NCBI GenBank assembly: GCA_028715115.1
Contig: JAQUSN010000002.1
Coordinates: 68,944 to 132,943, forward strand
Direction of reading: 5' to 3'
DNA: 64,000 bases
Source: Patescibacteria group bacterium
GTDB taxonomy: Bacteria; Patescibacteriota; Patescibacteriia; UBA2591; UBA4787
The stretch's first letter is position 1, and each line of letters opens with the position of its first letter. The position numbers and the translations under genes were made by a program. The notes below the pieces were generated by a model. That model was not told the DNA's origin. It did no database searches and worked only from the letters and a program-made list of their open reading frames with translations. This document shows, in pieces, positions 32,201-47,823 of this stretch.

Positions 32201-34293
32201 CCAATCAGATCGGTGATTATTATTCAAAAGTTAATTTCTGTGAAGATGCCAACGGAGATGGTTGCCAATGTTTTTATCAAAAAGCAGAATATGGTAATAA
32301 GTTAGCTACTAAATATTTTAATCTAGATACCGACTTAACCGCTAAAAAGGTCTGTACTCAGGGTGATCCTGGTATGTTGGGGAAATTATGCGATAATCTT
32401 GATAAATGTGGGCCAGACCCGGAAGATGGACAGCCAGATGTGCGCCGTTGTGAAGAACCATCTAATATTATTAAAAATTACGGTCAAAGAGACTTTTGCT
32501 TGGAGCCTGATTTAACTAAATTAGACAAGGTTAATGCATGTTTAACCTGGTGGCCGGCTAATGGCAGTATTGGTGATTCGGACATTAATAATATGTTCCA
32601 AAGCGCGGGTTATTTCCCGAGTACAAGCCGACAATGGTATTGTGTGGGGAATACGACTACACCGTCTTCTTTAAGTGGCGTTGGTTTTTTCCCAGATCAA
32701 CAAGACGCCGTAAATACTTGCGGGCATGGTTATATTAACAGAAATCCATATTATTATTCACGAAACCCGGATCAATACAAAGGATTTAAGCTAACTTCAG
32801 GAAGCTATACATGGACGTGGCCCGTTACAAATAATCAAAGTTTTGGCAGTCAAGCTTTCACCTATTGGCACACCGGCATACAAAATATTACTTTAGGAAT
32901 GATAAGCGGTGTTTCAGCAACTGTTTGCGGTGATTTTGGTGGTACAAATACTAAATGCGGCGCTTGCGGCGATATTGGTGGTGGTTCTGGGGGAGTCAAA
33001 CCTCTTACTTGGGATAGCGTAAGTAATTGTTTCGTTTATCAACAAGCTGCTAGACCTCAAGACAGTACTCCATCGGGAGCTACGCCAGAAGAGTTTATTT
33101 TTAAGGTTTGTTTTAATGGTAGTTCGGTTGATTCTAGATTAATTAAGGCAGAATTAAATTTGAATAATGCTGGTAATACTTTTGGCGATGCCCTTTGGGG
33201 ATTGATTGAAGATGTAGGGTTTGATTTTAAAAGCGGATGTTCAACCATTGCCAGAATAGCAAGTAATGGCGATACCAAAGCCTATACCAATAAGATAAAT
33301 AGCATGGATGAAAATAAAAATTATACCGGACAAGGGGTAGACAATAAAACAGACGTTAATCAATGTAAGCCTTGGGGCGCAGTAAACTATAATTCGGATA
33401 AAACTAATTTTATTAATACTAATACTGCCGGCACTTGCTGGATGCAACAGGTAGCAAGTGATTCGATTTATTCTAACCGCGATGTTCTAGAGAATAATTT
33501 ATTTGCTAAAAGTTTCGAGATATATACTTATGACAGAAATACTTTTAGCTATGTATCTTCTTCGGGAGATGATCGGACGGATATTAATTCTAATTCTACT
33601 AAGGCGCCGAAAGTTGCCGCGGTTTGTTTTAATCAGCAAAATGGCTCTTCGTCAATTTGTCGCGATGGCAACAACAACCCCATTGCCGGTTTAACAATTG
33701 GTAATACTTATAATCTGAATATTGTTCGAGAACAAGCTTATTATGCGGCGATAAAATTTTATGCTTGGGCTGACGCAAATCAAATGCCAGTTCGCGAAAT
33801 AGCTATAGATTGGACCGGTGGGAGTAGGCCCTCTATCTTTGACAACAACAGCATTATTGCTAAAAATCATAAAGATGCTTGTCCAACAAAATGTATGCGA
33901 GATGGTTTTTGTAGGGACAAAAATAATAATAAAGTTAGTTGTGATAGTATTGATGCGATAGTTTGCAATAATATTAATGATTGTCCTGCTGGTGGTGTGG
34001 GGCAAGGGCCTGCGACTTGCGAAATAACTAATTTTGGAGATTCATATGATGCTTGCGCGACTCAATTTTGGCAGTTTAATCATCTTTATATTTGTACCAA
34101 AGATAGTGATTATTATGATCCGCAACGAGGGGCCTGCATTTTTAAGCCCAGGGTTTTCGTAAGAGACAATTGGGGTTGGTGTAGTGGTGGAGTTTATGTC
34201 GGGAACACTCCTTGTACTAGTACTCCTGGAATATCTTTTGCCAAAGAAATAATAATTTATCCACCTAGCACTAGCGGTCAGCAACAAGAGTAA
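26278..34293 (+). CDS. giant (2671 aa) secreted Cys-rich surface protein with two CBM-like beta-sandwich modules; putative adhesin of the downstream T4SS-like system
   Basis: Single uninterrupted ORF with an N-terminal signal/TM. Recurrent G-C-E/R-x-F/Y Cys-rich repeats. Two galactose-binding-like modules (about 28800..29280 and 30210..30650). Stop is 3 nt before the VirB6-like gene. Confidence 0.6.
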   Translation: MQLKKNFQFKIITGAVLLTIFCSIFTPVLFYPQVAKAQWVVTNPHDFVKDILEKIGEALKTAGYVAYRNSLNLVLGQMAQQSAEYLATGTPGQKPMFLSSSKYWLDLGDSVLGDFIDTTAKSGGFLNQSLCDPIDPTIRFQMLVSLDPKYQKMTWNSEARCSLSQIAERAREMGKQKLIDFDVNLTEGPVGGYKSDLGTIILGDGQLSPTQKKLLYGTVDNKGNFTYKGVIGNLIDIQDEFSAFIKAEVNNQVTPGADIIKMTIERLSSKLDADILHESGPTGAKWWHNYAVTCLGYDKKENYCSDVNCVTYFCDTTQSGCSNNFEQCTLRTQRVNDYAKKIIDWAMSLKQMMNEINPDDFQPPAAASLEDLSKMFNPEGSSVGVALSLNSSLFDKQTTAVENSKFWQLLQGRINDVTSAISGLTKTPSTLVSETARQSVVEGTASIKTVTGVALADAVGVFTNTLINKMIKNVIYGTGLNPELNPDLSNNLTGGGFSAPGQKEARAMFSDLSTVVLKRGDKLDILSELSACPTDSKYALPNNCTIDSGLVRAAEASMTIKDAIDQGFLHGDWVVGGYNVKDTNRDYATRYSLNNIKKMRRNRIMPVGLEIAAQKINRGELEDAKITLSRIVNEFNKVNDSGNCDGGTASPFCHLVDPNWVVKAPEMKCKTVAYSAIPMANSNQRQEICIDMQDCIHENDRGECDTYAYCTKEKNIWRMGGDICESQNATCQTYTRVRDGQQFSYLNNTLDFSGCDQNNAGCKWYCDRFTKGLAANGENTWACKEPGISLRKVGTQWTDDSDPSNHLFFNNKVSLCSSTAEGCSQFIRLSNNSGVNILANGSFEIYPSTQTFPATTVDGWMAKTNSGTLHSQFINDGGLARTGNIVAGIDSARDDWGGVKLAVGSNLASFLVDNNSYLISIWVNNKDLNRSHNIHLFVSTNSGWKSLYNKIIPRNSGWQRLIYPFVYRVGDGYNFNNLSWEVANDTGAQGLVYFDDLQLEPGTSVSSYKDYGAVNQSYFKKAPDFMKCYNRYSDGTLNTSDDDLNCSNYVLACKKNEAGCEMYRPINGDPSLPAVARDADRCPAECSGYQIFKESATNFSSGVLAVNLIPSTARTCVANETGCEEFTNLDQFSQGGEGKEYYNSIRPCRKPDDGCSYFYTWVGSDTSGYQLKRYYLQKRGVIKQGEAGLGPDEFLSDFDALKLWGECNSEDDIFSNPRCKQFFDNSGNSYLRLYENTISCSNDCHPLRKTTAVTQEFCQTTTQSGVTIPGMSYSNGICTYMAIPSEGTTCNRVNVGCREYKGNAAENIRQIFLEDFESGVGDWKVAPQNALIRSSTDSIYAGGHSAQVINSNKVATTISKDVSNEITVGKEYQLSLWVKGITGDISFGITGNQVSSPINVGDVNDWRLITFSPYYISTLPTGTIEIAIQATPNLRSDVAPVTYSFVIDNILLKEAQSSLYLIKDSWTTPQVCDKNEQGQNMPGFMIGCAAYKDTENADNYFKTFSYLCSEKSVGCEAMIETHNSSNPFAQSFNDDKYTVPADSIEYLINDGKKTCAAADKGCERFGLPSLSASNQGGQITYKVTGWTDKYLKNDPDLYTQKPILCSDNGMACEEFMAKGSNTSVYFKDPGDKACEYKAKISETDEYGWYKQGTNEPCYSDSPVNGFYKIKKTTDNNYLGFAGLCPSSQSSCTKFTDPLDNKSYYYLNNSKLDKSSCQGVSQKEGCILINDTNQSAKTYSSKATYNKSKDKQYAAVGPINCEVQADCSNPENLETDFCKYCKICVNGTNTGGSCLNDGGCPGGFCQQILNNDSNTIVKVQRDRTCGEWLSCAGGQMVWDKSANEYKNQCTSLIRCQGLVGSGDEERCSNFILDTPQQLTESLYKSRNVSWADMDYSGYSLYEFYPVDTLTPYNYGTSDQPDYKLTYKDNIQDHGVNNLTCSSTQSCPTGMDCQTGHCVIPKTCQAYPEQDSPFISANQIGDYYSKVNFCEDANGDGCQCFYQKAEYGNKLATKYFNLDTDLTAKKVCTQGDPGMLGKLCDNLDKCGPDPEDGQPDVRRCEEPSNIIKNYGQRDFCLEPDLTKLDKVNACLTWWPANGSIGDSDINNMFQSAGYFPSTSRQWYCVGNTTTPSSLSGVGFFPDQQDAVNTCGHGYINRNPYYYSRNPDQYKGFKLTSGSYTWTWPVTNNQSFGSQAFTYWHTGIQNITLGMISGVSATVCGDFGGTNTKCGACGDIGGGSGGVKPLTWDSVSNCFVYQQAARPQDSTPSGATPEEFIFKVCFNGSSVDSRLIKAELNLNNAGNTFGDALWGLIEDVGFDFKSGCSTIARIASNGDTKAYTNKINSMDENKNYTGQGVDNKTDVNQCKPWGAVNYNSDKTNFINTNTAGTCWMQQVASDSIYSNRDVLENNLFAKSFEIYTYDRNTFSYVSSSGDDRTDINSNSTKAPKVAAVCFNQQNGSSSICRDGNNNPIAGLTIGNTYNLNIVREQAYYAAIKFYAWADANQMPVREIAIDWTGGSRPSIFDNNSIIAKNHKDACPTKCMRDGFCRDKNNNKVSCDSIDAIVCNNINDCPAGGVGQGPATCEITNFGDSYDACATQFWQFNHLYICTKDSDYYDPQRGACIFKPRVFVRDNWGWCSGGVYVGNTPCTSTPGISFAKEIIIYPPSTSGQQQE

Positions 34294-34296
34294 ATT

Positions 34297-37155
34297 ATGA
34301 AGTTTAACTGGATAAAAAAAATCAACTTCCGCAAAGGGCTGATAATTTTATTAGTTGCCGTTTTTGTTTTGTCCATTTTACCTCGCGTCATTAATGCAGC
34401 CGACTCCGCCGAGCCAGCCGATCAATCTTCAGTTAATAGTATAGAACATCTTTCTCTAACCGTTAGCGGATTGATAACTAGCGCAGTGGTAGCGGCAATT
34501 GGTAAATTAATGGTCGTGGTTATTCGAGTTTTGGTCAGCTTGGCTCAGTATAATGATTTTCTGAAGTCGCCAGTAGTTGATATAGGCTGGAGACTGATTC
34601 GTGATCTTTGCAACATGCTATTTATAGTAATTCTTTTGGTAATTGCTTTTGCGACAGTATTACAGAGAGAACAATATTCTTATAAAAGAATGTTGGGCGC
34701 GCTGGTTCTGGCGGCGGTGTTGGTTAATTTTTCGAAATTAATCTGCGGAGTTATTATTGATTTTTCGCAAGTAGTCATGTTGACCTTTGTCAACGCGATA
34801 AAAGACGCGGCCGAAGGCAACTTTGCCGAATTGATTGGTATTAAGCAGCTTCTTTCCATGACGGCAGATCCTAGTAAACCTTTGACTATAAATTCTTTTG
34901 AATTATCAGTTACTTATTTATTGGCTTTAATTTTTTCTATTGTCGGTTTAGTTATCTTTATTGTTGTTACGGTAATAGTTCTTTTAAGAATAATTATACT
35001 TTGGTTTTTGGTCATGCTTTCACCGGTTGCTTTTATCGCCACAATTTTGCCGCGAACTAATGCTTATGCAAGTCGATGGTGGGATAAGTTTACCAATCAA
35101 GTAATCGTGGGCCCGGTTTTAATGATTTTTATTTGGTTATCGCTATCTATTGTTCAACAAAGTATGAATGACGGAGGTATGTTAAACCATTTAAAGATGG
35201 GAAGTTCTTTACAAAAAACTACTGATTTATTAGGAAATGCCGTGGGCGTGAATAATAATGCAATAGCAGCGGGCGTGGCCGATATTGGTCAGGCGCCTAA
35301 TGTTTTAGGATTTATGGTCGGTATTGCTTTGTTGGTTGGATCGGTGGCTATGGCTCAAGAATTGTCTGCCGCTGGATCTGGTATGGCCATGAACGCGGTT
35401 AATAAAATGAAACAAATCGGCGCCGGCGCTGCGGCTATGCCAGGTAGGTTGGGCGGCAAGGCCTTAAAAGCCGTAGGTCAAAGCGCCGTGGAACGATTTG
35501 AGGCAAAAACGGGTATACCTATTCAACCTAAACACTACAGAGCTGCTTGGGAGAATCGTAAAAGAATAGTACGCGGTCAAAGAGCCGCTCAAATGATGGA
35601 GAAAATGGAGGGGCATCGATTCCTTCGTCCGCCAACGGAATTCGTTAATAATATGTTTTCTACAAAAGGATGGAAAGCTGGCGTTCAGAGAATGTTTGGA
35701 GTTGATGTAGTTAAAAGAAATCAAGCTGCTGAGCTTAATAGACAGCTTGAAGAGCAAAGAGCTAAAATAAACGGAAGATTTACCAGCGATGAAATCGCTA
35801 AGAGCATTACTCAATTAGGAGGCGAGACAGGAGAAGAAGGAGAAATAGGCATGTTAGCAAGAGAACTAGAAGTCTATAAGAGTAAGTTAACCGAAGAAGA
35901 CCGAACTAAATTAGCAAAGGGAGAAAAAATAGAGGAGAAAAAACAGGCTAAAATTGATCAATTGACAGATTTAATTGATTTAAAACGAGCCCGACTGGAG
36001 GAGTTTGAAAACTATAATAGCCAAGCATGGAGAGAACAAAAAGCAAAAGAAGCTGGGGAAGCCGGGGCACAACTTGAGGGAAAAAGAGCAGAACTAAAAG
36101 CCGCAGAAGCCGAGGAAAACCCAGATCAAGCAGATCAAGAAAAAATTAAACAATTAAGAAGAGAAATCGATACATTAGAAGCCCATAAACAGCAGCTTGA
36201 CTTAGAGGCAAATATTATTATAACTCCGGAGCAAAAAGAGCAGGTTTCGGCCGAATTAGCGAAAATAGGTAAGAAATTTGGCGTTAAGATTGACGAGGCA
36301 GACGAAAAGAATCTCCAAAAACAATTAAGAGATTTATCAACGAAAAGAGATAAATTGCGCGTTGAAGGAGAGGTTATTATGCCTACCAGCATGCCATATG
36401 AAGATCAGGCCACGATAAACGCCGCTATATCTCAAGAATCGAAAAATTTACAAGGCATAGAGGATGCTGATGAGTTAGTTACTTTATATCAGGTAGCCAA
36501 AGATAAAAAAGATTTAATTAAAATGAGAGCTATTATTTTGAAATTGACCGAAAATAGAGACTTAAATGAATTACTGGATAAATTGGGGCATGAACAAAAT
36601 TATAAGGGACTTCAAGAATTAATCGAAGAAGATTTTGTTAAGCATATTGGCGGTTCGGCACAAGCGCATTATTCTTTTGGAAACGACGTTACGATGTTGA
36701 ATAAACATGAGGCGGCCTTTGAATTTAGTGGCGCCTATATAAGGGGTACTAATGGAAAATTAAGGACTACTACCGACAAGGAACACAGAAACTTTGTTTT
36801 AATAGAATCAGGTAAGCGAGACAGAGAAACCTTGTTTCGTAAAGATTGGTGGGGGTGGTTAATAGGCAAGCGAGTTGATCCGAATACTGGCAAACGAGTC
36901 CCGATTTGGACTCAAACGATTGAGCAGATCGTTAGAAGGGATTTAGGTATGTTAAAAACAGAGATAGATAAGTCTAGGCTTAATTCCGAGTTAGAATCAT
37001 GTTTCTCCCATCCAGAATTTATAGCTCATTTTCAGGATTTGCAGCAACGGTTTGTTGAAGAGGGCAGAAAGGGCGCAGTTGAACAGATAAAGGGAGTTAT
37101 TAAACACTTGCAGATGAAACAAGGCCAATATTGGCCGACTATAGAAGAAAAATAA
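34297..37155 (+). CDS. VirB6/TrbL/PrgH-like polytopic membrane protein with long charged coiled-coil C-terminal domain
   Basis: Signal peptide (..RVINA/ADS). At least 6 TM helices in the first about 330 aa. About 600-aa E/K-rich C-terminal extension. Position immediately upstream of VirB3/VirB4-like genes. Confidence 0.5.
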   Translation: MKFNWIKKINFRKGLIILLVAVFVLSILPRVINAADSAEPADQSSVNSIEHLSLTVSGLITSAVVAAIGKLMVVVIRVLVSLAQYNDFLKSPVVDIGWRLIRDLCNMLFIVILLVIAFATVLQREQYSYKRMLGALVLAAVLVNFSKLICGVIIDFSQVVMLTFVNAIKDAAEGNFAELIGIKQLLSMTADPSKPLTINSFELSVTYLLALIFSIVGLVIFIVVTVIVLLRIIILWFLVMLSPVAFIATILPRTNAYASRWWDKFTNQVIVGPVLMIFIWLSLSIVQQSMNDGGMLNHLKMGSSLQKTTDLLGNAVGVNNNAIAAGVADIGQAPNVLGFMVGIALLVGSVAMAQELSAAGSGMAMNAVNKMKQIGAGAAAMPGRLGGKALKAVGQSAVERFEAKTGIPIQPKHYRAAWENRKRIVRGQRAAQMMEKMEGHRFLRPPTEFVNNMFSTKGWKAGVQRMFGVDVVKRNQAAELNRQLEEQRAKINGRFTSDEIAKSITQLGGETGEEGEIGMLARELEVYKSKLTEEDRTKLAKGEKIEEKKQAKIDQLTDLIDLKRARLEEFENYNSQAWREQKAKEAGEAGAQLEGKRAELKAAEAEENPDQADQEKIKQLRREIDTLEAHKQQLDLEANIIITPEQKEQVSAELAKIGKKFGVKIDEADEKNLQKQLRDLSTKRDKLRVEGEVIMPTSMPYEDQATINAAISQESKNLQGIEDADELVTLYQVAKDKKDLIKMRAIILKLTENRDLNELLDKLGHEQNYKGLQELIEEDFVKHIGGSAQAHYSFGNDVTMLNKHEAAFEFSGAYIRGTNGKLRTTTDKEHRNFVLIESGKRDRETLFRKDWWGWLIGKRVDPNTGKRVPIWTQTIEQIVRRDLGMLKTEIDKSRLNSELESCFSHPEFIAHFQDLQQRFVEEGRKGAVEQIKGVIKHLQMKQGQYWPTIEEK

Positions 37156-39368: not shown

Positions 39369-39788
39369 ATGCAGTTTATTGTTCCTCAATTTATCGACAT
39401 TGAACCTAAAATTATCGGGCCGGTTACGCCACGGCAGTTTATTATTTTAATTATTACCGGTGCGTTTATTTTTGTCGCTTATAAATTATCTGATTTTTCT
39501 TTATTTATTATCGAAGCGGTAGCTTTATTAGGCCTAGGAGGGACTCTAGCTTTTTTGAAAATAAACGGCCAACCGGTTCACTATTTTTTATTAAACTTAA
39601 CCCAGACTTTTAAACGACCAATGTTAAGAATTTGGAGAAAAGATTTTATTATGGCAAAAGAATTAGCGGTTAAAGAAAAAGTAAAGATAGCGCCGGTAGC
39701 TATTCCGCGTAAAACGCTTTCTAATGCCCGGCTTTCAAATTTATCAATTTTAGTTGATACGGGCGGAATGTATCATGAGGAGGTTTGA
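39369..39788 (+). CDS. VirB3/PrgI-like small two-TM T4SS protein
   Basis: 139 aa. Two TM helices around PRQFIILIITGAFIFVAYKL and FIIEAVALLGLGGTLAFL. Directly precedes the VirB4 N-domain, as PrgI precedes PrgJ. Confidence 0.45.
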   Translation: MQFIVPQFIDIEPKIIGPVTPRQFIILIITGAFIFVAYKLSDFSLFIIEAVALLGLGGTLAFLKINGQPVHYFLLNLTQTFKRPMLRIWRKDFIMAKELAVKEKVKIAPVAIPRKTLSNARLSNLSILVDTGGMYHEEV

Positions 39789-39799
39789 TTTAAATTTTT

Positions 39800-40468
39800 A
39801 TGAGTAAAACTGCAGCCATTTCATCAACACAAAAATATTTAGACATCTCCGAGGTGCGAAGTGATTGTATTATTTTAAAAGACGGAACCATGCGAGCCGT
39901 GCTTTTGGTTTCTTCAATCAACTTTTCCTTAAAGTCAGAGGACGAGCAAAAGGCGACCGTTTCGGCTTATGTTCAATTTTTAAATACCTTGGAGCACCCC
40001 TTACAAATAATAATCCAGTCTCGTCGCCTGAATATCGAGAATTATTTAGTTGACCTAAATACCCGCCAAAAAGAGCAAACCAACAATTTATTAAAAGCTC
40101 AAATGGCCGAATATATTGATTTTATAAAAGAATTAGTCGATTTGGGAGAAATAATGACCAAGAAATTTTATGTTGTCGTGCCCTACAGTCCTATGGGTGA
40201 TAAAAAATTAAAATTTTTCTCCCGCCTATCGAGCGCTTTTACGGCCGGATCAGCTATTAGACTGAAGCGCGAGCGATTTGAGGCCTATCGAGAGCAATTA
40301 TTTAGAAGAGTTGATAATGTTAGTTCGGCGTTGTCGAGCATGGGGTTAAGAGTCGTGCCACTTGATACTCAAAGTTTAATTGAATTATTATATAATAGTT
40401 ACAATCCGGTCGAATCGGCAGTTCAAAAATTAGCCGAAATAAATAAGCTTAACATCGAAACGATTTAA
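39800..40468 (+). CDS. VirB4/TraE/PrgJ N-terminal domain, separate ORF ending in an in-frame TAA
   Basis: LDISEVRSDCIILKDGTMRAVLLVSSINFSLKSEDEQKATVSAYVQFLNTLEHPLQIIIQSRRLNIENYL matches the CagE/TrbE/VirB4 N-terminal pattern. Same reading frame as the next ORF. Confidence 0.55.
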   Translation: MSKTAAISSTQKYLDISEVRSDCIILKDGTMRAVLLVSSINFSLKSEDEQKATVSAYVQFLNTLEHPLQIIIQSRRLNIENYLVDLNTRQKEQTNNLLKAQMAEYIDFIKELVDLGEIMTKKFYVVVPYSPMGDKKLKFFSRLSSAFTAGSAIRLKRERFEAYREQLFRRVDNVSSALSSMGLRVVPLDTQSLIELLYNSYNPVESAVQKLAEINKLNIETI

Positions 40469-40471
40469 TTT

Positions 40472-42442
40472 ATGGCTATTCGTCCATCAGCTATTAATCG
40501 CGCCACTGCAATGCCAGAGAAGAAACCGACTCCTCAACAAAAGGAGCAGGTTAAAATTGTTCAAGAAAAGCAAATAAAAAATCTTTTAGATTCGGAAGAG
40601 GCATATTTAAAGGGACTAATGTCGGTTCGCGACTTGATTGCGCCGGCCGCGCTTAAGGTTAATCCTTCCTTTTTGCAATTAGGAGATAAATATATTAGAA
40701 CGCTTTTCGTGACCGCTTATCCTCGTTATATTTCTGTAGGTTGGTTTGCGCCAGTAATAAATTTTAATGCTTCTCTTGATGTGGCCATGTTTTTCTATCC
40801 GGTTAATTCGGGTGTGGTTTTGAAACAACTGCAAAAGAGAGTGGGCAATATTGAAGCGGAATTATCAGCTGAGCGTGATAAAGGGATGCCTCGAGATCCG
40901 ATTAAAGAGACCGCTTTACAAGATATTGAGAAGCTTCGCGACGACCTAACGACGGGAGTAGAACATTATTTTCAATTTGCTCTTTATGTAACCATGTATG
41001 CGAATTCATTGAAAGACCTTGATTCAATGACGGAAAAAATAGAAGCGCTATTCGGTTCAAAATTGATTTACACCAGACAAGTATTTTACCAAGCCGAACA
41101 AGGATTTAATTCGACCTTGCCTTTAGCTAGCGACGAGCTGATGGTGACCTTTAACATGAGTTCTTCTCCCTGTGCCTCATCTTTTCCTTTTATCTCCGCT
41201 GACGTTACTTCAGATACCGGGATTTTATATGGTATTAACAGGCACAACAATGGCCTGATTATCTTTGATAGATTTAGTATGCAGAATGCTAATATGAATG
41301 TTTTTGCTACTAGTGGCGCTGGCAAAAGCTACGCTATTAAGCTCGAGGTTTTGCGCTCAATGATGTTTGGCACCGATGTAATTATTATTGACCCAGAAAG
41401 AGAATATAAATATTTATCAGATGCCGTAGGAGGAACATATGTGAATATTTCTTTATCTTCGGATAGCAAAATTAATCCTTTTGATTTGCCCAGGGCTACT
41501 TCGGCCGATATGACTGCAGCTGACATAATTCGTTCGGCAGTTATTACTATTAAAGGATTGTTAAGAATTATGATTGGCAAGACCGACGAAAGAGGAACAA
41601 AGCAGTTTTCGCCGGAAGAGGATTCAATTATTGATCGCGCTCTACTTGAGACTTATGCTAAAAGAGATATTACGCCATCTGCTGACTTAAGCCAAATTAC
41701 TGAAATGCCGACCATGTCTGATTTGCAAAATATTTTAGAGGGCATGGAGGGCGGGGCCCAGTTGTCAGAAAGGCTGAAAAAGTATACCGAAGGCACCTTT
41801 GCCGGACTATTAAATAATCCGACCAACGTTAAAGTTAATAATCAATTAATAGTTTTTTCGGTTCGCGACTTAGAAGATGAGCTTCGGCCGATAGCTATTT
41901 ATACTATTGTCAATTATATTTGGAACATCGTCCGTTCTGAACTTAAAAAAAGAATTCTCGTCATTGATGAGGCTTGGTGGTTAATGCAGCAAGAGGATTC
42001 GGCAAAATTTATTTATGCTTTAGTCAAACGTTGCCGAAAATATTATCTAGGTGTGACTACGATCACTCAAGACGTTAACGATTTTTTGGTTTCTCCTTAT
42101 GGCAAAGCTATTGTAAATAACTCGGCGCTGCAACTTTTATTAAAACAAGCTCCGGCGGCGATTGATTTAGTGGCGCAAACATTCATGTTAACCGAAGGAG
42201 AAAAATATTTACTATTAGAGTGCGGGGTAGGTGAAGGGATTTTTTTCGCTGGCGCCAAACACGCAGCCATTAAGATTATTGCTTCGTACTCCGAAGATCA
42301 ATTAATTACTTCTGATCCGCGGCAAATCTTAGAAATCGAACAGGCCAAAAGGGAGTTTTCTCAAAAAGAGGCTGGCGATGCCGTGGTTGATCAGGGCGGG
42401 CAAAAAGAATTTGTTAAGGGTGTTGGTGATTTAGAAATTTAA
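40472..42442 (+). CDS. VirB4/TraE/PrgJ-family T4SS ATPase, C-terminal ATPase domain
   Basis: Walker A ATSGAGKSY. IIDPEREYKYL..GGTYVNISL...INPFDL. Walker B RILVIDEAWW. This is the canonical VirB4 motif series. Confidence 0.85.
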   Translation: MAIRPSAINRATAMPEKKPTPQQKEQVKIVQEKQIKNLLDSEEAYLKGLMSVRDLIAPAALKVNPSFLQLGDKYIRTLFVTAYPRYISVGWFAPVINFNASLDVAMFFYPVNSGVVLKQLQKRVGNIEAELSAERDKGMPRDPIKETALQDIEKLRDDLTTGVEHYFQFALYVTMYANSLKDLDSMTEKIEALFGSKLIYTRQVFYQAEQGFNSTLPLASDELMVTFNMSSSPCASSFPFISADVTSDTGILYGINRHNNGLIIFDRFSMQNANMNVFATSGAGKSYAIKLEVLRSMMFGTDVIIIDPEREYKYLSDAVGGTYVNISLSSDSKINPFDLPRATSADMTAADIIRSAVITIKGLLRIMIGKTDERGTKQFSPEEDSIIDRALLETYAKRDITPSADLSQITEMPTMSDLQNILEGMEGGAQLSERLKKYTEGTFAGLLNNPTNVKVNNQLIVFSVRDLEDELRPIAIYTIVNYIWNIVRSELKKRILVIDEAWWLMQQEDSAKFIYALVKRCRKYYLGVTTITQDVNDFLVSPYGKAIVNNSALQLLLKQAPAAIDLVAQTFMLTEGEKYLLLECGVGEGIFFAGAKHAAIKIIASYSEDQLITSDPRQILEIEQAKREFSQKEAGDAVVDQGGQKEFVKGVGDLEI

Positions 42443-42456
42443 TATAAAATTATTTT

Positions 42457-43020
42457 ATGAAAAAAGTAATCATCATTATTATCATTATACTTATAATCGG
42501 CGTTATTTTTTATTATTTAAATTGGCGCGGCAAAAACACCGCAAATCCTTTAATCCCAAGTAACAACCAGACCCAAATTAATGAACAGAACAATGATTTT
42601 ACGAATGAGGGCCAAACTGACAATACGCCCGTAGACCCAACTGCTAAATTAGAAAACGATTTAACCGTGATGGCTCGCGCTTTTATTGAACAATACGGCT
42701 CATGGTCAAACCAATCTACCTTTTCCAATTTTACAGACCTTTATCCTTATATGACTAGCTCATTAATGGCGCAAACTCAAAACCTAGTTAACCAGAAAAT
42801 AGCCGAAAAAAAATTATCCTTGAGTTATTATGGCATTACTACCAAAATATTATCTTTAGAATTGAAAAATTTGGCCGAGCCGACTGGCGAATTTTTTGCC
42901 AATATCCAACAACAAGAAACAAAAGGCGACACTACTACGGTTTTATACAAAACAGTAAAATTGGTTTTATTAAAAGAAGGGTCTCAATGGAAGGTCAATG
43001 ACATCATTTTTAATCCATAA
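42457..43020 (+). CDS. N-terminally anchored secreted protein, possible VirB8/PrgL/TcpC-like (NTF2-like) T4SS component
   Basis: One N-terminal TM, then a domain of about 140 aa ending ..EGSQWKVNDIIFNP. Size and position after VirB4 fit PrgL-like proteins. No diagnostic motif. Confidence 0.3.
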   Translation: MKKVIIIIIIILIIGVIFYYLNWRGKNTANPLIPSNNQTQINEQNNDFTNEGQTDNTPVDPTAKLENDLTVMARAFIEQYGSWSNQSTFSNFTDLYPYMTSSLMAQTQNLVNQKIAEKKLSLSYYGITTKILSLELKNLAEPTGEFFANIQQQETKGDTTTVLYKTVKLVLLKEGSQWKVNDIIFNP

Positions 43021-43031
43021 TTTTATTAATT

Positions 43032-43985
43032 ATGGGTGACTTTGTTGATCCAAAAATAAGAGAGGAAATAGAACGAAAGGATGCTTCGGATGCTGAAAAA
43101 TATAATCTTGACACTTCTGATCCTGACTATCTAGCTGCTCAAAAGCGCGGCAGAGGAGAAGATGAAGAATTTGAAGAATCAATTAGGCAAATAAAAGAGC
43201 AACGCCAAGCCAGGGAATTAAAACAACAAAGACTTAAAGAAGCTTCTAGTCGAAAAGCAGCAATAAATCGACAAGTGCAAACTCCCGAAATGCAACAGAC
43301 ATATCGGGACTTCAAAGATCATAAAGGTTACTCTGATTTTAGTGAAGAAAGAGCCAGGGCCAGAGACAATAAAGAATATATGAATAAGGCCCGTGCATTA
43401 TCTAACGTTGCCGTTGACGCAGCGGCAACAAGCATAAAGCGAGGCGATATTAAAGGAGCCATCACTGCTGGCCTAAAGGCTGCCGGAGAGATGGGAGGTC
43501 AAATAGCAACTGCCAAAATTTTGCAGTTCATGTGGGAAAATTTTTATTATGTGTTGCCAATATTTTATATAGATTTTCATTTTATAATGCGGTATATTGC
43601 TGGCTCTAAGTTGTTTTGTCGCCTAGGACAGGAATGGCTTATGAAAGGCAGTGGTAAGGCTGCTTCTGGAGCGCAAAAAGCATCAACAGCCGAACAAGGG
43701 TTAGAGGCGGCAAAATCTTCTACAACGGGAGCACAAGCGACTGCAGGACAAACAAGCGGAGATTTAAACAAGCTAGCTGATCAAATCGCCGAAGCCCCTA
43801 ATAAATTTTTGGAAATTATCGAAATCGCTGCTTTAATGGTTTGTAATTTGATAATTGGCGCTGCAATTTATTTAATCCTGATATATATTTTTATCATGAC
43901 TCATCCTTGCCAGTCAGCGGCTATTGTTACTCATTCCGAGGGCATTTTGAAGGCCTTTAAAAGTATTGGTATTAATTGTAAATAA
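43032..43985 (+). CDS. hypothetical protein, charged N-terminus and hydrophobic C-terminal segments (T4SS-cluster accessory)
   Basis: 317 aa. C-terminal TM-like IIEIAALMVCNLIIGAAIYLILIYIFIM. Overlaps the next ORF. Confidence 0.35.
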   Translation: MGDFVDPKIREEIERKDASDAEKYNLDTSDPDYLAAQKRGRGEDEEFEESIRQIKEQRQARELKQQRLKEASSRKAAINRQVQTPEMQQTYRDFKDHKGYSDFSEERARARDNKEYMNKARALSNVAVDAAATSIKRGDIKGAITAGLKAAGEMGGQIATAKILQFMWENFYYVLPIFYIDFHFIMRYIAGSKLFCRLGQEWLMKGSGKAASGAQKASTAEQGLEAAKSSTTGAQATAGQTSGDLNKLADQIAEAPNKFLEIIEIAALMVCNLIIGAAIYLILIYIFIMTHPCQSAAIVTHSEGILKAFKSIGINCK

Positions 43986-45207
43986 TTGTATGTTAATTAA
44001 TAAAAACATTCTCGGCATATTTATCTTTATTCTTTTATTGTTTGTTTTTTTAATTGGCGGCGCTCATATTATTAAGGCGCAAACTACTTTCACCCCCTCG
44101 GTCGGGATAGGAGATAGTAATTTTCAAGCTGGTTCGGGCGTAGAAATTACAGGACTATCAATAGCTGATTATATTATTGCCGTTTATAAATGGTCAATTA
44201 GGGTTATCGCGATTTTAGCCGTTATTGTTATCATGGTGGCTGGCTTTCGTTGGGTTAGCGCTGCCGGAAATGCATCAGTAATCGGCCAAGCGAAGAATCA
44301 GATGATCGATGCATTTATCGGATTAATTTTAGTGATTGGCGCTAATTTATTGTTATATTTTATTAATCCGGCCTTGGTGAGGTTTAACGATCTTTCAATA
44401 ACGCACATAAAGAAGGTTAGTTTGGATAATTATGATTTTCCGATAGAGCAAGCCATTATGCCTAATATCTGGGACGAAAGCGAAAAACAGCCAAATATTA
44501 AGGCTAGCGCCTGTGGAATACAGGCCGTGGATCAGGAAGATGGGAGAACTTATCTTGGGGTCAAATGTTCGTCGGCCGGAGTGCCGGGTGCTTCCATTAG
44601 GAAGCCTTGTGTTTTACAATTTAGTTTAACATCACAGGACTATCAAGATGATATTAATAAAAAAGCAGATATAGCCGAATATTTGGCAGATATTTATTAT
44701 CTTGGCAAAGATTCTGGTTATAACGTAGAGTCTGGTTGTATTAGTAGGGGGTCGGTATTTAAATACATGATCCCGATTTACGGATTAATTGAGGCAGCGA
44801 CTACGACGTATGGGAAGGTAAGTTTGCCCTTCAGAGATGATCCAACCGTAATGTACGATTTTGCTCTTGATCCATCAACTAATTGCGGCGTTAAAAAAGG
44901 AGAAGGAGATATTATAAAAAATAAGATTGGGATGAAAGTTGGGATAAAATGTCCTAATTCGAATTCAACGTGTGTCTTTGCTCTGGTTAATGTTACTGAT
45001 GATAAAATAAATAAGACTGCCGTTAAATTTTATAGTTTTTGTAAACCAGATAGCGGAATGCCTATGTGTGAACCAAGTGAGAGAAGAGTAAATTGTGAAA
45101 GATATACTAATTGTAAAGTATCAGGATGCACAAATGAGATAGACGCATCCGGAAAATCAATTTGTTGCCAGCAGGCAGTTGATAGGGCGGTTTTGAGGAA
45201 TTTTTAG
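43966..45207 (+). CDS. pilin-like (VirB2/TrbC-type two-TM hairpin) module fused to Cys-rich extracellular domain; paralog of the N-terminal module of the 46510 protein
   Basis: Module YIIAVYKWSIRVIAILAVIVIMVAGFRWVSAAGNASVIGQAKNQMIDAFIGLILVIGANLLLYFINP (about 44160..44390). A likelier start is the ATG at 43990, just after the upstream stop. Confidence 0.5.
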   Translation: MVLIVNNCMLINKNILGIFIFILLLFVFLIGGAHIIKAQTTFTPSVGIGDSNFQAGSGVEITGLSIADYIIAVYKWSIRVIAILAVIVIMVAGFRWVSAAGNASVIGQAKNQMIDAFIGLILVIGANLLLYFINPALVRFNDLSITHIKKVSLDNYDFPIEQAIMPNIWDESEKQPNIKASACGIQAVDQEDGRTYLGVKCSSAGVPGASIRKPCVLQFSLTSQDYQDDINKKADIAEYLADIYYLGKDSGYNVESGCISRGSVFKYMIPIYGLIEAATTTYGKVSLPFRDDPTVMYDFALDPSTNCGVKKGEGDIIKNKIGMKVGIKCPNSNSTCVFALVNVTDDKINKTAVKFYSFCKPDSGMPMCEPSERRVNCERYTNCKVSGCTNEIDASGKSICCQQAVDRAVLRNF

Positions 45208-45225
45208 TCGTCAAATTTTTATATC

Positions 45226-46506
45226 ATGAATAAAAGAATACTATTGATAGTTTTGTTTTTTGTGGCGGTTATAGCCATAGCTTTGGTTTTGTATTTTTTT
45301 ATTTTTAGGACCAATATTTCCGCGCCGCCGATTAATGAGGCGCAAAACTTAATCAACGAGCAAACCGGCAAATTGCCAGTAAGTCGTGAACAATGGGAGG
45401 GCATGACTATAAATGAGCGGGCTAGCGCCAATTTACCTTTATACGAATGGCAGGAAGCGGCGCCTGCTCAATCTTCAGAAGCACAGCCGGTAGTTTTGCA
45501 AGTCTCTGAGATAGCCAACGGCGGTAAAACCATTATTAATCCTGTTTCCAATGATTCGGCGCAAAGTGCCACATTGTCTTTCGATGGACAAAATAGCTTA
45601 TTCTATAACTCAACTGATGGTAAATTCTATCAGGTAGATAAGAACGGCATTAAAACGTCTTTAAGCAATCAAGTTTTTCATAATGTCAGTAATGTTAATT
45701 GGGCGCCAAATAAGGACAGAGCGATTATCGAATATCCCGATGGCTTTAAAATAATGTATGATTTTAAAAATCAGAAACAATACACCCTGCCGAACAATTG
45801 GGAAGACTTTTCTTGGGATTCTCGCGGGAATCAAATTGTTTTCAAGGCTACTTCGCAATATTCACAAAATAATTGGTTAGCCGTAGCTAATTCCGATGGA
45901 ACCGGGGCGAGGGCCATAGAAAATATGGGTGATAACGGCGATAAGGTTACCGTCTCCTGGTCGCCCAATAATCAAGTCGTTGCTTTTTCGGCTACTGGTC
46001 AAGCGCAATCAGCTTGGCAGCAAGAGGTTTTATTAATCGGCCAAAATGGAGAAAATTTTAAATCTTTGATTATCGATGGCCGTGGTTTTGAAACTCAATG
46101 GAATCCGCGAGGCGATAGCATAGCTTATAGTGTTTATAGTGCCGACAGCGGCTATAAACCAACATTATATTTAGTAAAAGCGCAGGGAGATGAAATCGGT
46201 AACGATAAAATTAACACAGGCCTTAACACCTGGTCTCATAAATGCGCTTATAATTCTAGCGGCAGTTATCTTTTTTGCGCCGTTCCTAAAAGTTTACCAG
46301 AGGGGTCGGGGATGATGAGCGAGTTAGCTACTAATCTGCAAGATAATTTTTATAAAATTAACGCCATTACCGGCGAAAAGACATTTTTAGCCGAAGGAGC
46401 AATGGGTGGTTATGATGTTTCCCAGCTATTTATTTCGGGAGACGATGGTACGTTATATTTTATTGATAAAAATTCAGGAATATTAAGATACATAAAATTA
46501 AGATAG
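45226..46506 (+). CDS. TolB-like beta-propeller protein with N-terminal TM anchor
   Basis: Repeating blade motifs WAPNKDRAI, FSWDSRGNQIVF, VSWSPNNQVVAF, TQWNPRGDSIAY. Confidence 0.5.
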   Translation: MNKRILLIVLFFVAVIAIALVLYFFIFRTNISAPPINEAQNLINEQTGKLPVSREQWEGMTINERASANLPLYEWQEAAPAQSSEAQPVVLQVSEIANGGKTIINPVSNDSAQSATLSFDGQNSLFYNSTDGKFYQVDKNGIKTSLSNQVFHNVSNVNWAPNKDRAIIEYPDGFKIMYDFKNQKQYTLPNNWEDFSWDSRGNQIVFKATSQYSQNNWLAVANSDGTGARAIENMGDNGDKVTVSWSPNNQVVAFSATGQAQSAWQQEVLLIGQNGENFKSLIIDGRGFETQWNPRGDSIAYSVYSADSGYKPTLYLVKAQGDEIGNDKINTGLNTWSHKCAYNSSGSYLFCAVPKSLPEGSGMMSELATNLQDNFYKINAITGEKTFLAEGAMGGYDVSQLFISGDDGTLYFIDKNSGILRYIKLR

Positions 46507-46509
46507 ATT

Positions 46510-47823
46510 GTGATCAATTTTTTCTTAAAAAATAGATTTTTTAGAACTTCCAAGCTCGGTTATCTCTTGGTGGTTTTTGTCTTAATGGGTTTTTTGTTTT
46601 TTTTATTTCAAAACGTGCTGGCTATTAGCTGTTGCTATGGTTCTAATATCGAGCCAAGGTGCAAAGATATTACTACTGGATTTTGTCCACTGCCATATAC
46701 CATGCAGGCGAAAGATACTACTTGCGCTAATTGTACTGATTGTTTTTGCCAGGGCAGCTTCGCGCCAGCCGATGCTACTGATCCTGTGCCAACAAAAAAT
46801 ACAGAACAAAAAACTCCAGATATTATCCCTACTCTTCAAGTTCAAATTCCCGGTTTTTCTGGATTTTCCAAAGATATCCAAGTTTGTTTAGAGGAGGGCA
46901 AGACTTTAGACGAGTGTCAAAAGGGCAAAACAGGCTATTCAATTCCATGGATAGGGGAATATTTAATCGCTGTTTATAAATGGGCGGTTAGAGCTATCGC
47001 TATTTTGGCCGTGATAATTATTATGTGGGGCGGGTTGCAGTGGATATTAGCTCGTGGCAATTCCTCGGCCATTACGGAAGCTAAATCAAAAATAAGTTCA
47101 GCTTTGATCGGCATAGTAATTATCGTTGGTATGAATGTTTTTTTGTCGGCTATTAACCCCAATTTAACAATCTTAAAACCTATTACCCTGGGCAAGATTG
47201 AACCAATAATTATCACTCCATTAGATTCAGACAAAGAAGAGGGCGGTATTAGTGGTCCTAATGCCGGTACCAGCATAGATATGGGGGGCAATTGTTTTCC
47301 TGTTAGTGCGGATAGCATCAAACAAACCCAATGGAATTTTGGTAATAGCCGTAGTAGCGGCAAACGTTGTCATGCTGGCATTGATATTTTAACCAATTGG
47401 CGGTCGGGTAATGATAGTGTAGTGGCTATAGGGGACGGTCGCGTTTTGGCTGTTTACGGTTTTTATACTTGTAGTACCGAAACCGGTAAGGGTGGACACG
47501 TTAGTGCAATTTTTATTGATCACAAAAAATTAAATTATACAGTTTTATATGGTGAAGTAGATGATGATAGTATTCTGGTAAAAAATGGAGATGAAGTGAG
47601 GGCTGGTCAACTTTTAGGCCAAGCAAGCCGTTGTGGGATGTTACACCTTGAAATGTATGAAGCCGGTGCCAGAGGAAATAAAACATGGTATCCTCCAAAT
47701 GGACAAAGAGTTGAGAATCAACCTAATTATTGCCAACAAAATTTTTTAAATACAAAGCCGTCAACATTATTGGACCCAACGGCCACTTTAAAATATTTAG
47801 ATGGCAAAAGATGTAGTATTTAA
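46510..47823 (+). CDS. pilin-like module fused to M23 (LytM-type) peptidase domain; putative cell-wall hydrolase of the T4SS-like system
   Basis: N-terminal TM plus a Cys-rich segment. Module YLIAVYKWAVRAIAILAVIIIMWGGLQWILARGNSSAITEAKSKISSALIGIVIIVGMNVFLSAINP. M23 core HAGIDI ... GGHVSAIFIDH ... GMLHLEMYE (HxxxD present; second motif reads HLE rather than HxH). Confidence 0.55.
   Translation: MINFFLKNRFFRTSKLGYLLVVFVLMGFLFFLFQNVLAISCCYGSNIEPRCKDITTGFCPLPYTMQAKDTTCANCTDCFCQGSFAPADATDPVPTKNTEQKTPDIIPTLQVQIPGFSGFSKDIQVCLEEGKTLDECQKGKTGYSIPWIGEYLIAVYKWAVRAIAILAVIIIMWGGLQWILARGNSSAITEAKSKISSALIGIVIIVGMNVFLSAINPNLTILKPITLGKIEPIIITPLDSDKEEGGISGPNAGTSIDMGGNCFPVSADSIKQTQWNFGNSRSSGKRCHAGIDILTNWRSGNDSVVAIGDGRVLAVYGFYTCSTETGKGGHVSAIFIDHKKLNYTVLYGEVDDDSILVKNGDEVRAGQLLGQASRCGMLHLEMYEAGARGNKTWYPPNGQRVENQPNYCQQNFLNTKPSTLLDPTATLKYLDGKRCSI

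Follow-up and report, generated by a model that had tools for sequence, protein, structure and literature searches.

We analysed a 64,000-nucleotide (nt) stretch of contig JAQUSN010000002.1 from a Patescibacteria group bacterium (the window, in whose coordinates all positions are given). Within a type IV secretion system (T4SS) operon, the window encodes two proteins, P1 and P2, that share a two-helix hairpin probably belonging to the T4SS_pilin family (Pfam accession PF18895). The hairpin is followed by a cysteine-rich tail in P1 and by an M23 peptidase domain in P2. A preliminary description of this DNA had treated positions 43966-47823 as an interval of two such proteins. Both are present, but a third gene, for a TolB-like beta-propeller (45226-46506), also lies inside the interval. 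The start of P1 is revised as well. The mechanical open reading frame (ORF) begins at the TTG at 43966, but the ATG at 43990 is more likely, as it yields a protein of 405 amino acids (aa) identical to an NCBI entry (P0017) named 'pilin [Patescibacteria group bacterium]'. A partial NCBI entry identical to P2 is named 'M23 family metallopeptidase'.

A shared two-helix module

P1, P2 and their parts are located as follows:

43990..45207, + strand: P1, 405 aa, with a signal peptide, a pilin-type hairpin and a 14-cysteine tail (PF18895, E = 1.3e-5, 25.6 bits)
43990..44079, + strand: predicted P1 signal peptide, aa 1-30 (...HIIKA / QTT; Kyte-Doolittle peak 3.03)
44146..44397, + strand: P1 hairpin module, aa 53-136, with a 70-aa core at aa 61-130 (profile i-E-value 5e-34)
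44398..45204, + strand: P1 C-terminal tail, 269 aa, 14 cysteines
46510..47823, + strand: P2, 437 aa, with a signal peptide, a cysteine-rich N-region, a hairpin and an M23 domain (PF18895, 26.8 bits; PF01551, 33.3 bits)
46510..46623, + strand: predicted P2 signal peptide, aa 1-38 (...QNVLA / ISCC; basic n-region, then hydrophobic aa 13-43)
46624..46935, + strand: P2 extracytoplasmic N-region, aa 39-142, with 10 cysteines and then the pre-module motif
46936..47187, + strand: P2 hairpin module, aa 143-226, including the junction NPNLT-ILKPI (profile i-E-value 1.6e-38)
47371..47667, + strand: P2 M23 peptidase domain (Pfam match at aa 288-386, PF01551, E = 5.7e-8; the whole tail is aa 227-437)

The preliminary description reported about 70 residues of more than 50% identity between the two proteins. 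Both stretches are present, and the 70-residue cores are identical at 36 positions (51.4%). A whole-protein BLASTP comparison returned a single significant segment of 98 aa (41% identity, E = 6e-18). The two modules align locally with a score of 201. By comparison, 2000 composition-preserving shuffles of module 2 scored 33 +/- 6 (maximum 69; z = 27.7), and of the remaining ORFs in the window, the closest to module 1 scored 42. The similarity is thus not a by-product of hydrophobic composition. Six-frame hidden Markov model scans with a 2-sequence and a 287-instance profile found exactly two copies of the module in the 64 kb. No DNA-level repeat linking the two modules was found, implying that P1 and P2 are old paralogues rather than products of a recent duplication.

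Hydropathy profiles contain three hydrophobic segments per protein: a signal-like N-terminal segment and the two helices of the module (aa 61-94 and 103-132 in P1). The module is therefore internal, as first described, and lies behind a separate N-terminal signal peptide in both proteins. An AlphaFold2 model of P2 residues 101-240, built on a 74-sequence alignment, reached a predicted local distance difference test score (pLDDT) of 90.5. Its helices span residues 147-180 and 185-215 (pLDDT above 90) and are joined by a 4-residue loop, RGNS, in agreement with the helix, short loop, helix architecture originally proposed. The opening turns of helix 2 are polar and include the conserved AK. DSSP assigned two short strands to the pre-module region of P2 and one strand to the residues after the junction (225-228). 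We read these as a small extracellular sheet, with presumed strand pairing, that may clamp both flanks of the hairpin as a neck.

The two proteins differ in what surrounds the module. In P1, about 22 residues separate the signal peptide from the module, which is followed by NPALV and 269 further residues. P2 has 142 residues before and 211 after the module, and its N-region of about 100 aa ends in a conserved motif, IPxLxVxIPGFxGFS..C....C...IPWIGEY. The cysteines, in even numbers (14 in P1, 16 in P2), are all located outside the hairpin, and the inter-helix loop has a net positive charge in both proteins. These features suggest an N-out/C-out topology. Judging by hydropathy, charge and cysteine distribution, both hairpin ends, the N-region and the tail are probably located outside the cytoplasmic membrane, with or without signal-peptide cleavage. 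Cleavage is predicted after aa 30 in P1 and after aa 38 in P2, and the A/Q junction at the predicted end of the P1 signal peptide is kept in P1-type orthologues. A holin-like role was rejected because of the N-out/C-out topology behind a signal peptide.

In nearly all P2-type proteins, a CC or CCC run stands no more than a few residues from the predicted cleavage site (46624-46650 in the window; homologues P0002-P0016). We considered a lipoprotein signal at this position and rejected it, as residues -3 to -1 form no consistent lipobox across the homologues.

The P and L of the NPxL junction, just past the end of the Pfam model, are the sole invariant columns of the 74-sequence alignment. This conservation could mean that P1 and P2 are pro-pilins cut at NPxL, which would free a short pilin and an enzyme. 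TrbC/VirB2 pilins are trimmed at both ends, and relatives with several tandem hairpins would need cleavage to yield monomers. The model argues otherwise: the residues after the junction form a strand (pLDDT 82-91) beside the pre-module strands, which suggests a folded neck that is retained. Moreover, with V or T at -1 the junction suits signal peptidase poorly, which led us to discard signal-peptidase cleavage there, and the operon contains no TraF-like peptidase. We regard precursor processing as very unlikely. A sortase-type signal in NPxLT was also discarded, since the motif lies past the transmembrane (TM) helix and not before it.

A conserved secretion operon

P1 and P2 are encoded 1.5-4 kb downstream of genes for VirB4, TrsD and PrgI, on the same strand and with short gaps. 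The T4SS setting noted in the preliminary description is thus well founded, with VirB4-, VirB3- and VirB6-type genes upstream of both. The neighbouring genes are:

26278..34293, + strand: giant 2671-aa cysteine-rich secreted protein at the head of the gene block (PF02018 CBM_4_9, E = 8e-8)
34297..37155, + strand: polytopic 952-aa protein, tentative VirB6/TrbL-like candidate (PF04610, E = 0.003, under the gathering score)
39369..39788, + strand: PrgI/VirB3-like two-TM protein (PF12666, E = 7.6e-5)
39800..40468, + strand: TrsD/TraC-like protein, resembling the VirB4 N-terminal domain (NF041427 TrsD, E = 3e-9; NF045975, E = 2e-9)
40472..42442, + strand: VirB4-type ATPase (PF19044 TraG P-loop, E = 3.5e-28)
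42457..43985, + strand: two accessory membrane proteins (187 and 317 aa), encoded between VirB4 and P1 (weak family hints only)
45226..46506, + strand: TolB-like beta-propeller, TM-anchored, 426 aa (partial TIGR02800 match, E = 4e-5)

The block is tightly packed and entirely on the + strand. Its order is giant protein, 952-aa protein, 705-aa protein, PrgI, TrsD, VirB4, 187-aa protein, 317-aa protein, P1, propeller and P2, the 705-aa gene lying between those for the 952-aa and PrgI/VirB3-like proteins. This gene set corresponds to the monoderm-type system, related to the FATA class, that has been described for Patescibacteria (PMC12102498).

We compared the block with metagenomic operons, the closest of which (L001) belongs to a Patescibacteria metagenome-assembled genome. 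The series VirB4, two small genes, P1-type gene, propeller and P2-type gene is complete in L001, L002 and L005, and L007 keeps the same order up to the end of its contig inside the propeller gene. Orthologues of the accessory 187-aa and 317-aa genes occur in all four. Among the orthologues, the gene at the TrsD position matches PF26593 (TraC-like) and that at the PrgI position matches PF12666. VirB4 is 63% identical to its orthologues in L002 and L005. The propeller keeps its position and is 63, 51, 50 and 41% identical in L001, L002, L005 and L007, respectively; we know of no role for a TolB-like propeller in any T4SS.

Identity to the L001 orthologues varies along the operon: 82% for VirB4, 74% for TrsD, 73% for PrgI, 63% for both the propeller and the P1 module, 61% for the P2 module, 45% for the 187-aa protein and 32-38% for the N-regions. 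The P1 tail has no detectable similarity to its L001 counterpart, and the P2 tail is a different enzyme. As the hairpins match the propeller in conservation and far exceed the N-regions, they appear to be under sequence-specific constraint like that on their conserved neighbours.

This constraint bears on the idea that the hairpin is a passive two-TM anchor of pilin ancestry, holding surface proteins or autolysins that serve growth and division and have no part in a T4SS. In the window, P2 lies just upstream of radA-mreC-mreD-PBP2, and M23 enzymes are commonly division-related. In addition, no VirB4 gene occurs within the 10-21 kb retrieved around two arrays of related genes (L004 and L006, described below). 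However, the mre/PBP2 neighbourhood is not kept: L002, where a P2-type gene is likewise followed by radA, has recG, enolase and other genes beyond it, and we rejected a functional link to mreCD-PBP2 for this reason. The position behind VirB4 is kept in the window and four operons (partially in L007), and the hairpin identity of 61-63% appears far above what a hydrophobic anchor needs. Finally, directly beside the L004 array lies a gene homologous to that for the giant protein at the start of the T4SS block (27% identity over 871 aa, E = 1e-56). We consider a passive anchor highly improbable.

Several further features of the region were recorded. The giant CBM_4_9 protein may be an adhesin or a wall-binding partner. 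The radA ATG, at 47801, overlaps the last 23 nt of P2, suggesting co-transcription and perhaps translational coupling with this last gene of the block. The L007 operon carries two small 23S_rRNA_IVP genes (PF05635), one at its start (L007:35-403) and one inside it (L007:3883-4137), and the former also has a weak bAvd-like match (PF22296). bAvd-like proteins accompany diversity-generating retroelements (DGRs); no reverse transcriptase was found on the 8.5 kb contig of L007.

Pilin-family affinity and exchangeable tails

P2 matches PF18895 just above the gathering threshold (26.8 against 26.6 bits, E = 5.5e-6) over model positions 7-71 of 71. P1-type orthologues also exceed the threshold (29.3 bits in L001, 34.7 in P0133 and 32.8 in P0097). 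Neither P1 nor P2 has the size typical of this family, whose members are about 120-190 aa long and end soon after helix 2. Short members exist, such as the 127-aa P0242, named 'VirB2 component (pilin)' by JGI. For the VirB2/TrbC family proper (PF04956), no match was found in P1 or P2 at E <= 0.1, and 3 of 109 close relatives match it (best E = 3.8e-13); weaker matches occur in a 338-aa protein of L004, in P0097 and in P0137. Dual matches to PF18895 and PF04956 have been reported for S. epibionticum pilins (PMC12102498, PMC10633639). A PDB sequence search with the module profile returned nothing at E <= 10, and a tblastn search of the module against 72,556 plasmids gave no match. The matches among relatives, the dual matches in S. 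epibionticum and the gene neighbourhood connect the module to characterised conjugative pilins indirectly. We take the module to be, by inference, a VirB2-like hairpin of the T4SS_pilin family, and make no claim of pilus formation. We saw neither a plain signal peptide plus anchor lacking a pilin-family match nor a broad occurrence of the module outside T4SS contexts.

The module profile matched 60,969 cluster representatives at E <= 1e-3 among 1.84 billion. Our architecture sample comprises 156 module-bearing proteins, mainly the best 150 of these 60,969, and is biased towards the query subfamily; the following proportions thus describe the closest relatives and not all PF18895 proteins. A single module occurs in 115 of the sampled proteins, and 102 of these have a tail of at least 100 aa (median tail 193 aa, with a median of 9 cysteines). 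PF18895 is found in 104 of the 109 close single-module relatives. All matches in a search with the 74-sequence profile are at most 248 aa long, and the tighter module alignment returned one locus when used as a genome-locus query. The remaining 41 of the 156 proteins carry 2-16 tandem hairpins per polypeptide, with short linkers and no internal signal peptides (for example P0020, 552 aa; P0035, 1147 aa; P0111, 1775 aa). Such 'poly-pilins' could be covalent pilin stacks, cleaved precursors or polytopic membrane proteins.

Pfam searches of the 109 close single-module relatives identified tail domains that are mostly cell-wall hydrolases by family assignment. Peptidase_C39_2 is the commonest single family (9 members), followed by Peptidase_M15_4 (6), VanY (5), Amidase_2 (4), SLT and 3D (3 each) and Peptidase_M15 (2); M23, CHAP, NlpC/P60 and Peptidase_C70 are each found once.

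Two orthogroups correspond to the two genes of the window. P1-type proteins have a short N-region, an FxPQIxIG motif, an NPAL junction and cysteine-rich tails (median 236 aa and 14 cysteines), and no Pfam domain was detected in the 10 tails tested. The tail of P1 itself has no Pfam match, no PDB sequence match and no homologue among 5.8 billion proteins or in the syntenic loci. The window contains no direct repeats or DGR-like template/variable pairs that would explain this variability. P2-type proteins have a long cysteine-rich N-region, a PWIGEY motif and an NPxLTxLKPI junction, and in many members the tail is an enzyme.

The earlier assignment of one cysteine-rich tail (P1) and one M23 peptidase (P2) agrees with the cysteine positions and the Pfam matches, the PF01551 match of P2 scoring 33.3 bits against a gathering threshold of 28.7. 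The profile of the P2 M23 subfamily matches Vibrio cholerae TagE (5j1l, E = 1.5e-5), 8s3m, 4rny and lysostaphin. H288 and D292 of the HxxxD motif and H379, the second histidine of HxH, are invariant in the subfamily and align with the TagE and 8s3m motifs; zinc binding is thus likely retained. An invariant glutamate, E349, occupies the position of the 'YxH' histidine, and an invariant methionine, M377, that of the first histidine of HxH, after a short deletion. The histidines normally found at these positions are the two auxiliary catalytic residues of LytM-type enzymes, which we take to be LytM H260 and H291. The M23 relatives P0011 and P0014, which lack a hairpin, have the same glutamate and methionine replacements. 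By analogy with the glutamate of other zinc peptidases, E349 may serve as the general base. The subfamily may use a variant catalytic mechanism or be inactive.

The enzyme on the P2-type hairpin has been exchanged, with a fixed junction directly past ...LKPIxxG. In P0006, the module is 93% identical to that of P2 and the N-terminal half 64%, yet the tail is VanY. At the P2 position, L001, the closest operon, also encodes VanY, while the window encodes M23; the more distant L002 and L005 keep an M23 tail that is 46-48% identical to that of P2.

The preliminary description had asked whether other T4SS loci of the candidate phyla radiation carry several such modules with variable C-terminal domains. 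Related loci do, both as conserved P1/P2 pairs and as arrays of 4-5 genes. L004 (8297-14071) and L006 (560-8417) each contain a DsbA/thioredoxin gene followed by tandem single-hairpin genes, four and five respectively. Their tails include M15-like, 3D, NlpC/P60, Amidase_2 and M23 domains.

This diversity raises the possibility that P1, P2 and their relatives are polymorphic effectors, with the cysteine-rich region and hairpin as a delivery module and the exchangeable C-terminal enzymes directed at the host wall. Several observations are consistent with this idea. First, tails are swapped at a fixed junction. Second, the enzyme families in the arrays of 4-5 genes span the main kinds of peptidoglycan bond, namely glycan, amide and peptide bonds. 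Third, C39-like and C70-like protease tails are also present. Finally, a parallel exists in the Xanthomonas T4SS effectors, which join one recognition domain to M23, SLT, amidase or NlpC/P60 heads (PMC6536674). Conversely, we found no conserved immunity-like gene (radA directly follows P2) and saw no coupling protein in the operon. Export by Sec followed by insertion of a membrane hairpin is unlike the route of known T4SS effectors, and wall hydrolases that act from outside need no injection. On balance, we judge an effector role unlikely.

Proposed function and comparison with known systems

We propose that the hairpin serves to tether extracytoplasmic domains to the T4SS or to recruit them to it, with P2 as a functional analogue of VirB1 and P1 as a variable surface domain. 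We think this proposal somewhat likelier to be right than wrong. P1 and P2 would be exported through their N-terminal signal peptides, and the hairpin would insert with both ends outside the membrane, which would place the cysteine-rich N-region and C-terminal domain on the cell surface. The T4SS would handle the hairpin as a pilin, presumably docking it on VirB6-like and VirB4 components, and the hairpin would thus position the attached domains at the secretion site. The P2 tail, a putative zinc peptidase of the M23/LAS type, would cut peptidoglycan cross-links. P2 would then be the wall-breaching component, comparable in function to VirB1/PrgK: it would make way for the machine through the wall of the producer itself and possibly, at the point of contact, through that of the host bacterium. 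The P1 tail may be a hypervariable, disulfide-rich domain at the surface, whose simplest role would be in contact or recognition.

The sequence data show the protein architecture, indicators of topology, the family match, the conserved place in the operon, the variety of tail enzymes and their swapping; that the hairpin does the recruiting, that the tail is enzymatically active and which wall it attacks are inferred from them. A wall-hydrolase role is favoured by P2 being the only recognisable wall enzyme in the operon; Pfam detected no VirB1/TrsG/CD419-type domain (SLT, lysozyme or CHAP) in P2 or elsewhere in it. It is also favoured by the tails of relatives, which include M23, VanY/M15/M15_4, Amidase_2, SLT, 3D, NlpC/P60, CHAP and C39-like domains. 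The DsbA-type genes that head related arrays are in line with extracytoplasmic disulfide-rich domains.

Several observations weigh against recruitment of wall enzymes by a pilin-like hairpin. P1 falls 1 bit below the PF18895 gathering threshold, and to our knowledge no PF18895 protein has experimental data. In hhalign, the module profile matched Agrobacterium tumefaciens VirB2 (8cue/8exh) and F TraA (5ler) with probabilities of 3% and 1%, respectively, both pilin sequences having been checked as identical to the PDB chains. Fold searches with the module returned nothing in Foldseek and otherwise non-specific matches. The initial likening to VirB2/TrbC pilins thus holds for the PF18895 match and for the VirB4/VirB3/VirB6-type operon, but not for PF04956 or for these profile comparisons. 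Six-frame module scans of the window found no short classical pilin in the operon. The M23 domain of P2 lacks both auxiliary catalytic histidines, making its activity uncertain, and the function given to the P1 tail is a guess. Finally, the arrays of 4-5 hydrolase fusions in L004 and L006 exceed what machine assembly should need and point towards an offensive or nutritional role.

Since the operon contains no short classical pilin, any pilus subunits would be P1 and P2 themselves or be encoded elsewhere. In the former case, P1 and P2 would be polymerising pilins, major or minor, extracted by VirB4, with their hairpins stacked and their terminal domains displayed on the surface or tip of a pilus that drills the host envelope. 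We rate such polymerisation as doubtful, and the pilin-anchored display suggested in the preliminary description is likewise conjectural. A VirB2-like filament whose subunits or tip are fused to hydrolases and hypervariable binding domains, and which cuts through the host wall, is in our estimate rather improbable. In such a filament, the enzyme cassette would be swapped between lineages to match host wall chemistry, which would explain both the apparent absence of VirB1 and the essential, unexplained T4SS of epibionts. The readings considered here overlap; a pilus armed with enzymes, an effector role and precursor processing differ mainly in the fate of the proteins past membrane insertion.

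Classical VirB2/TrbC/TraA pilins (PF04956; pili 8exh and 5ler) resemble P1 and P2 in having a signal peptide, two hydrophobic helices, a short basic loop and VirB3, VirB4 and VirB6 homologues nearby. They differ in size and composition, as mature pilins have about 65-75 residues and no appended domains, compared with the 405 and 437 aa of P1 and P2. VirB2-like pilin arrays near virB4 are known in Patescibacteria, from S. epibionticum (SEML1_0014-0019) and a survey of 3,035 genomes (PMC10633639, PMC12102498). The claim of the preliminary description that the arrangement is not typical of classical T4SS pilins thus stands for those pilins, but multiple VirB2-like copies are already published for this group. 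The S. epibionticum arrays belong to the same family, PF18895, near virB4; the window has two copies, 51% identical, with one gene between them. The S. epibionticum pilins are short: three of their genes measure 381-417 nt, and the PF18895 matches reach no further than residue 99-180. In P1 and P2, by contrast, the hairpin is flanked on one side or both by large extracytoplasmic domains, one of them of an enzyme family. The virB4-adjacent hydrolases of S. epibionticum, SEML1_0006 and SEML1_0007, are essential (PMC12102498) and have no PF18895 annotation.

PrgK (pCF10), TraG (pIP501) and CwlT (ICEBs1) are related to P2 in function under our proposal. Enzymes of this type are held by a single N-terminal TM segment. 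As proposed for P2, they are membrane-tethered peptidoglycan hydrolases encoded inside a T4SS operon and needed for wall passage (PMC12102498). This position of a putative hydrolase gene is kept in the window, L001, L002 and L005. The domains differ: SLT/lysozyme plus CHAP or NlpC/P60 in the known enzymes, M23 plus a pilin-family hairpin in P2. SLT and CHAP tails occur on the same hairpin in relatives of P2.

The Xanthomonas effectors (X-Tfes; PMC6536674) likewise combine one conserved module with interchangeable M23, SLT, amidase, NlpC/P60 and lysozyme heads and are linked to a T4SS. In X-Tfes, VirD4 recognises the module, a soluble C-terminal XVIPCD; the effectors are paired with immunity proteins, and the system is that of a diderm. 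In P1 and P2, the module is a membrane hairpin near the N-terminus; neither an immunity gene nor a coupling protein was seen with them, and they belong to a monoderm cell. Polymorphic toxin systems share with P2-type proteins a conserved N-terminal part and exchangeable C-terminal enzymes. They differ in their cognate immunity genes; P2 is directly followed by radA instead, as is its counterpart in L002.

Earlier publications cover the VirB2-like arrays of Patescibacteria, the fact that they are essential in S. epibionticum and the rarity of VirB1, and precomputed Pfam tables already pair PF01551 with PF18895. Our literature search, whose coverage is incomplete, returned no account of an internal pilin hairpin fused to wall hydrolases, of the P1-propeller-P2 arrangement, of enzyme-tail exchange or of DsbA-led arrays. 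According to the 3,035-genome survey, a VirB1-type hydrolase is missing from most of the Patescibacteria that have VirB2 homologues (PMC12102498). In the single species tested, epibiotic growth requires the T4SS (PMC10633639), and a recent perspective calls the role of this system in Saccharibacteria, the cultivated Patescibacteria, 'completely unknown' (PMC11665869).

Against this background, putative wall-cutting enzymes are, in at least some lineages, built onto the pilin-family hairpin itself. The place of the fusion gene in the operon is conserved, the type of enzyme differs even between closely related operons, and some genomes have whole arrays of such fusions. The fusion would link the secretion machine physically to wall breaching and may be the route of these parasites' machine through cell walls; it suggests host-wall attack or host-range adaptation. 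The tail domains, the hairpin and the NPxL junction provide experimenters with defined constructs. The fusions are a concrete, testable candidate for the missing VirB1-type activity.

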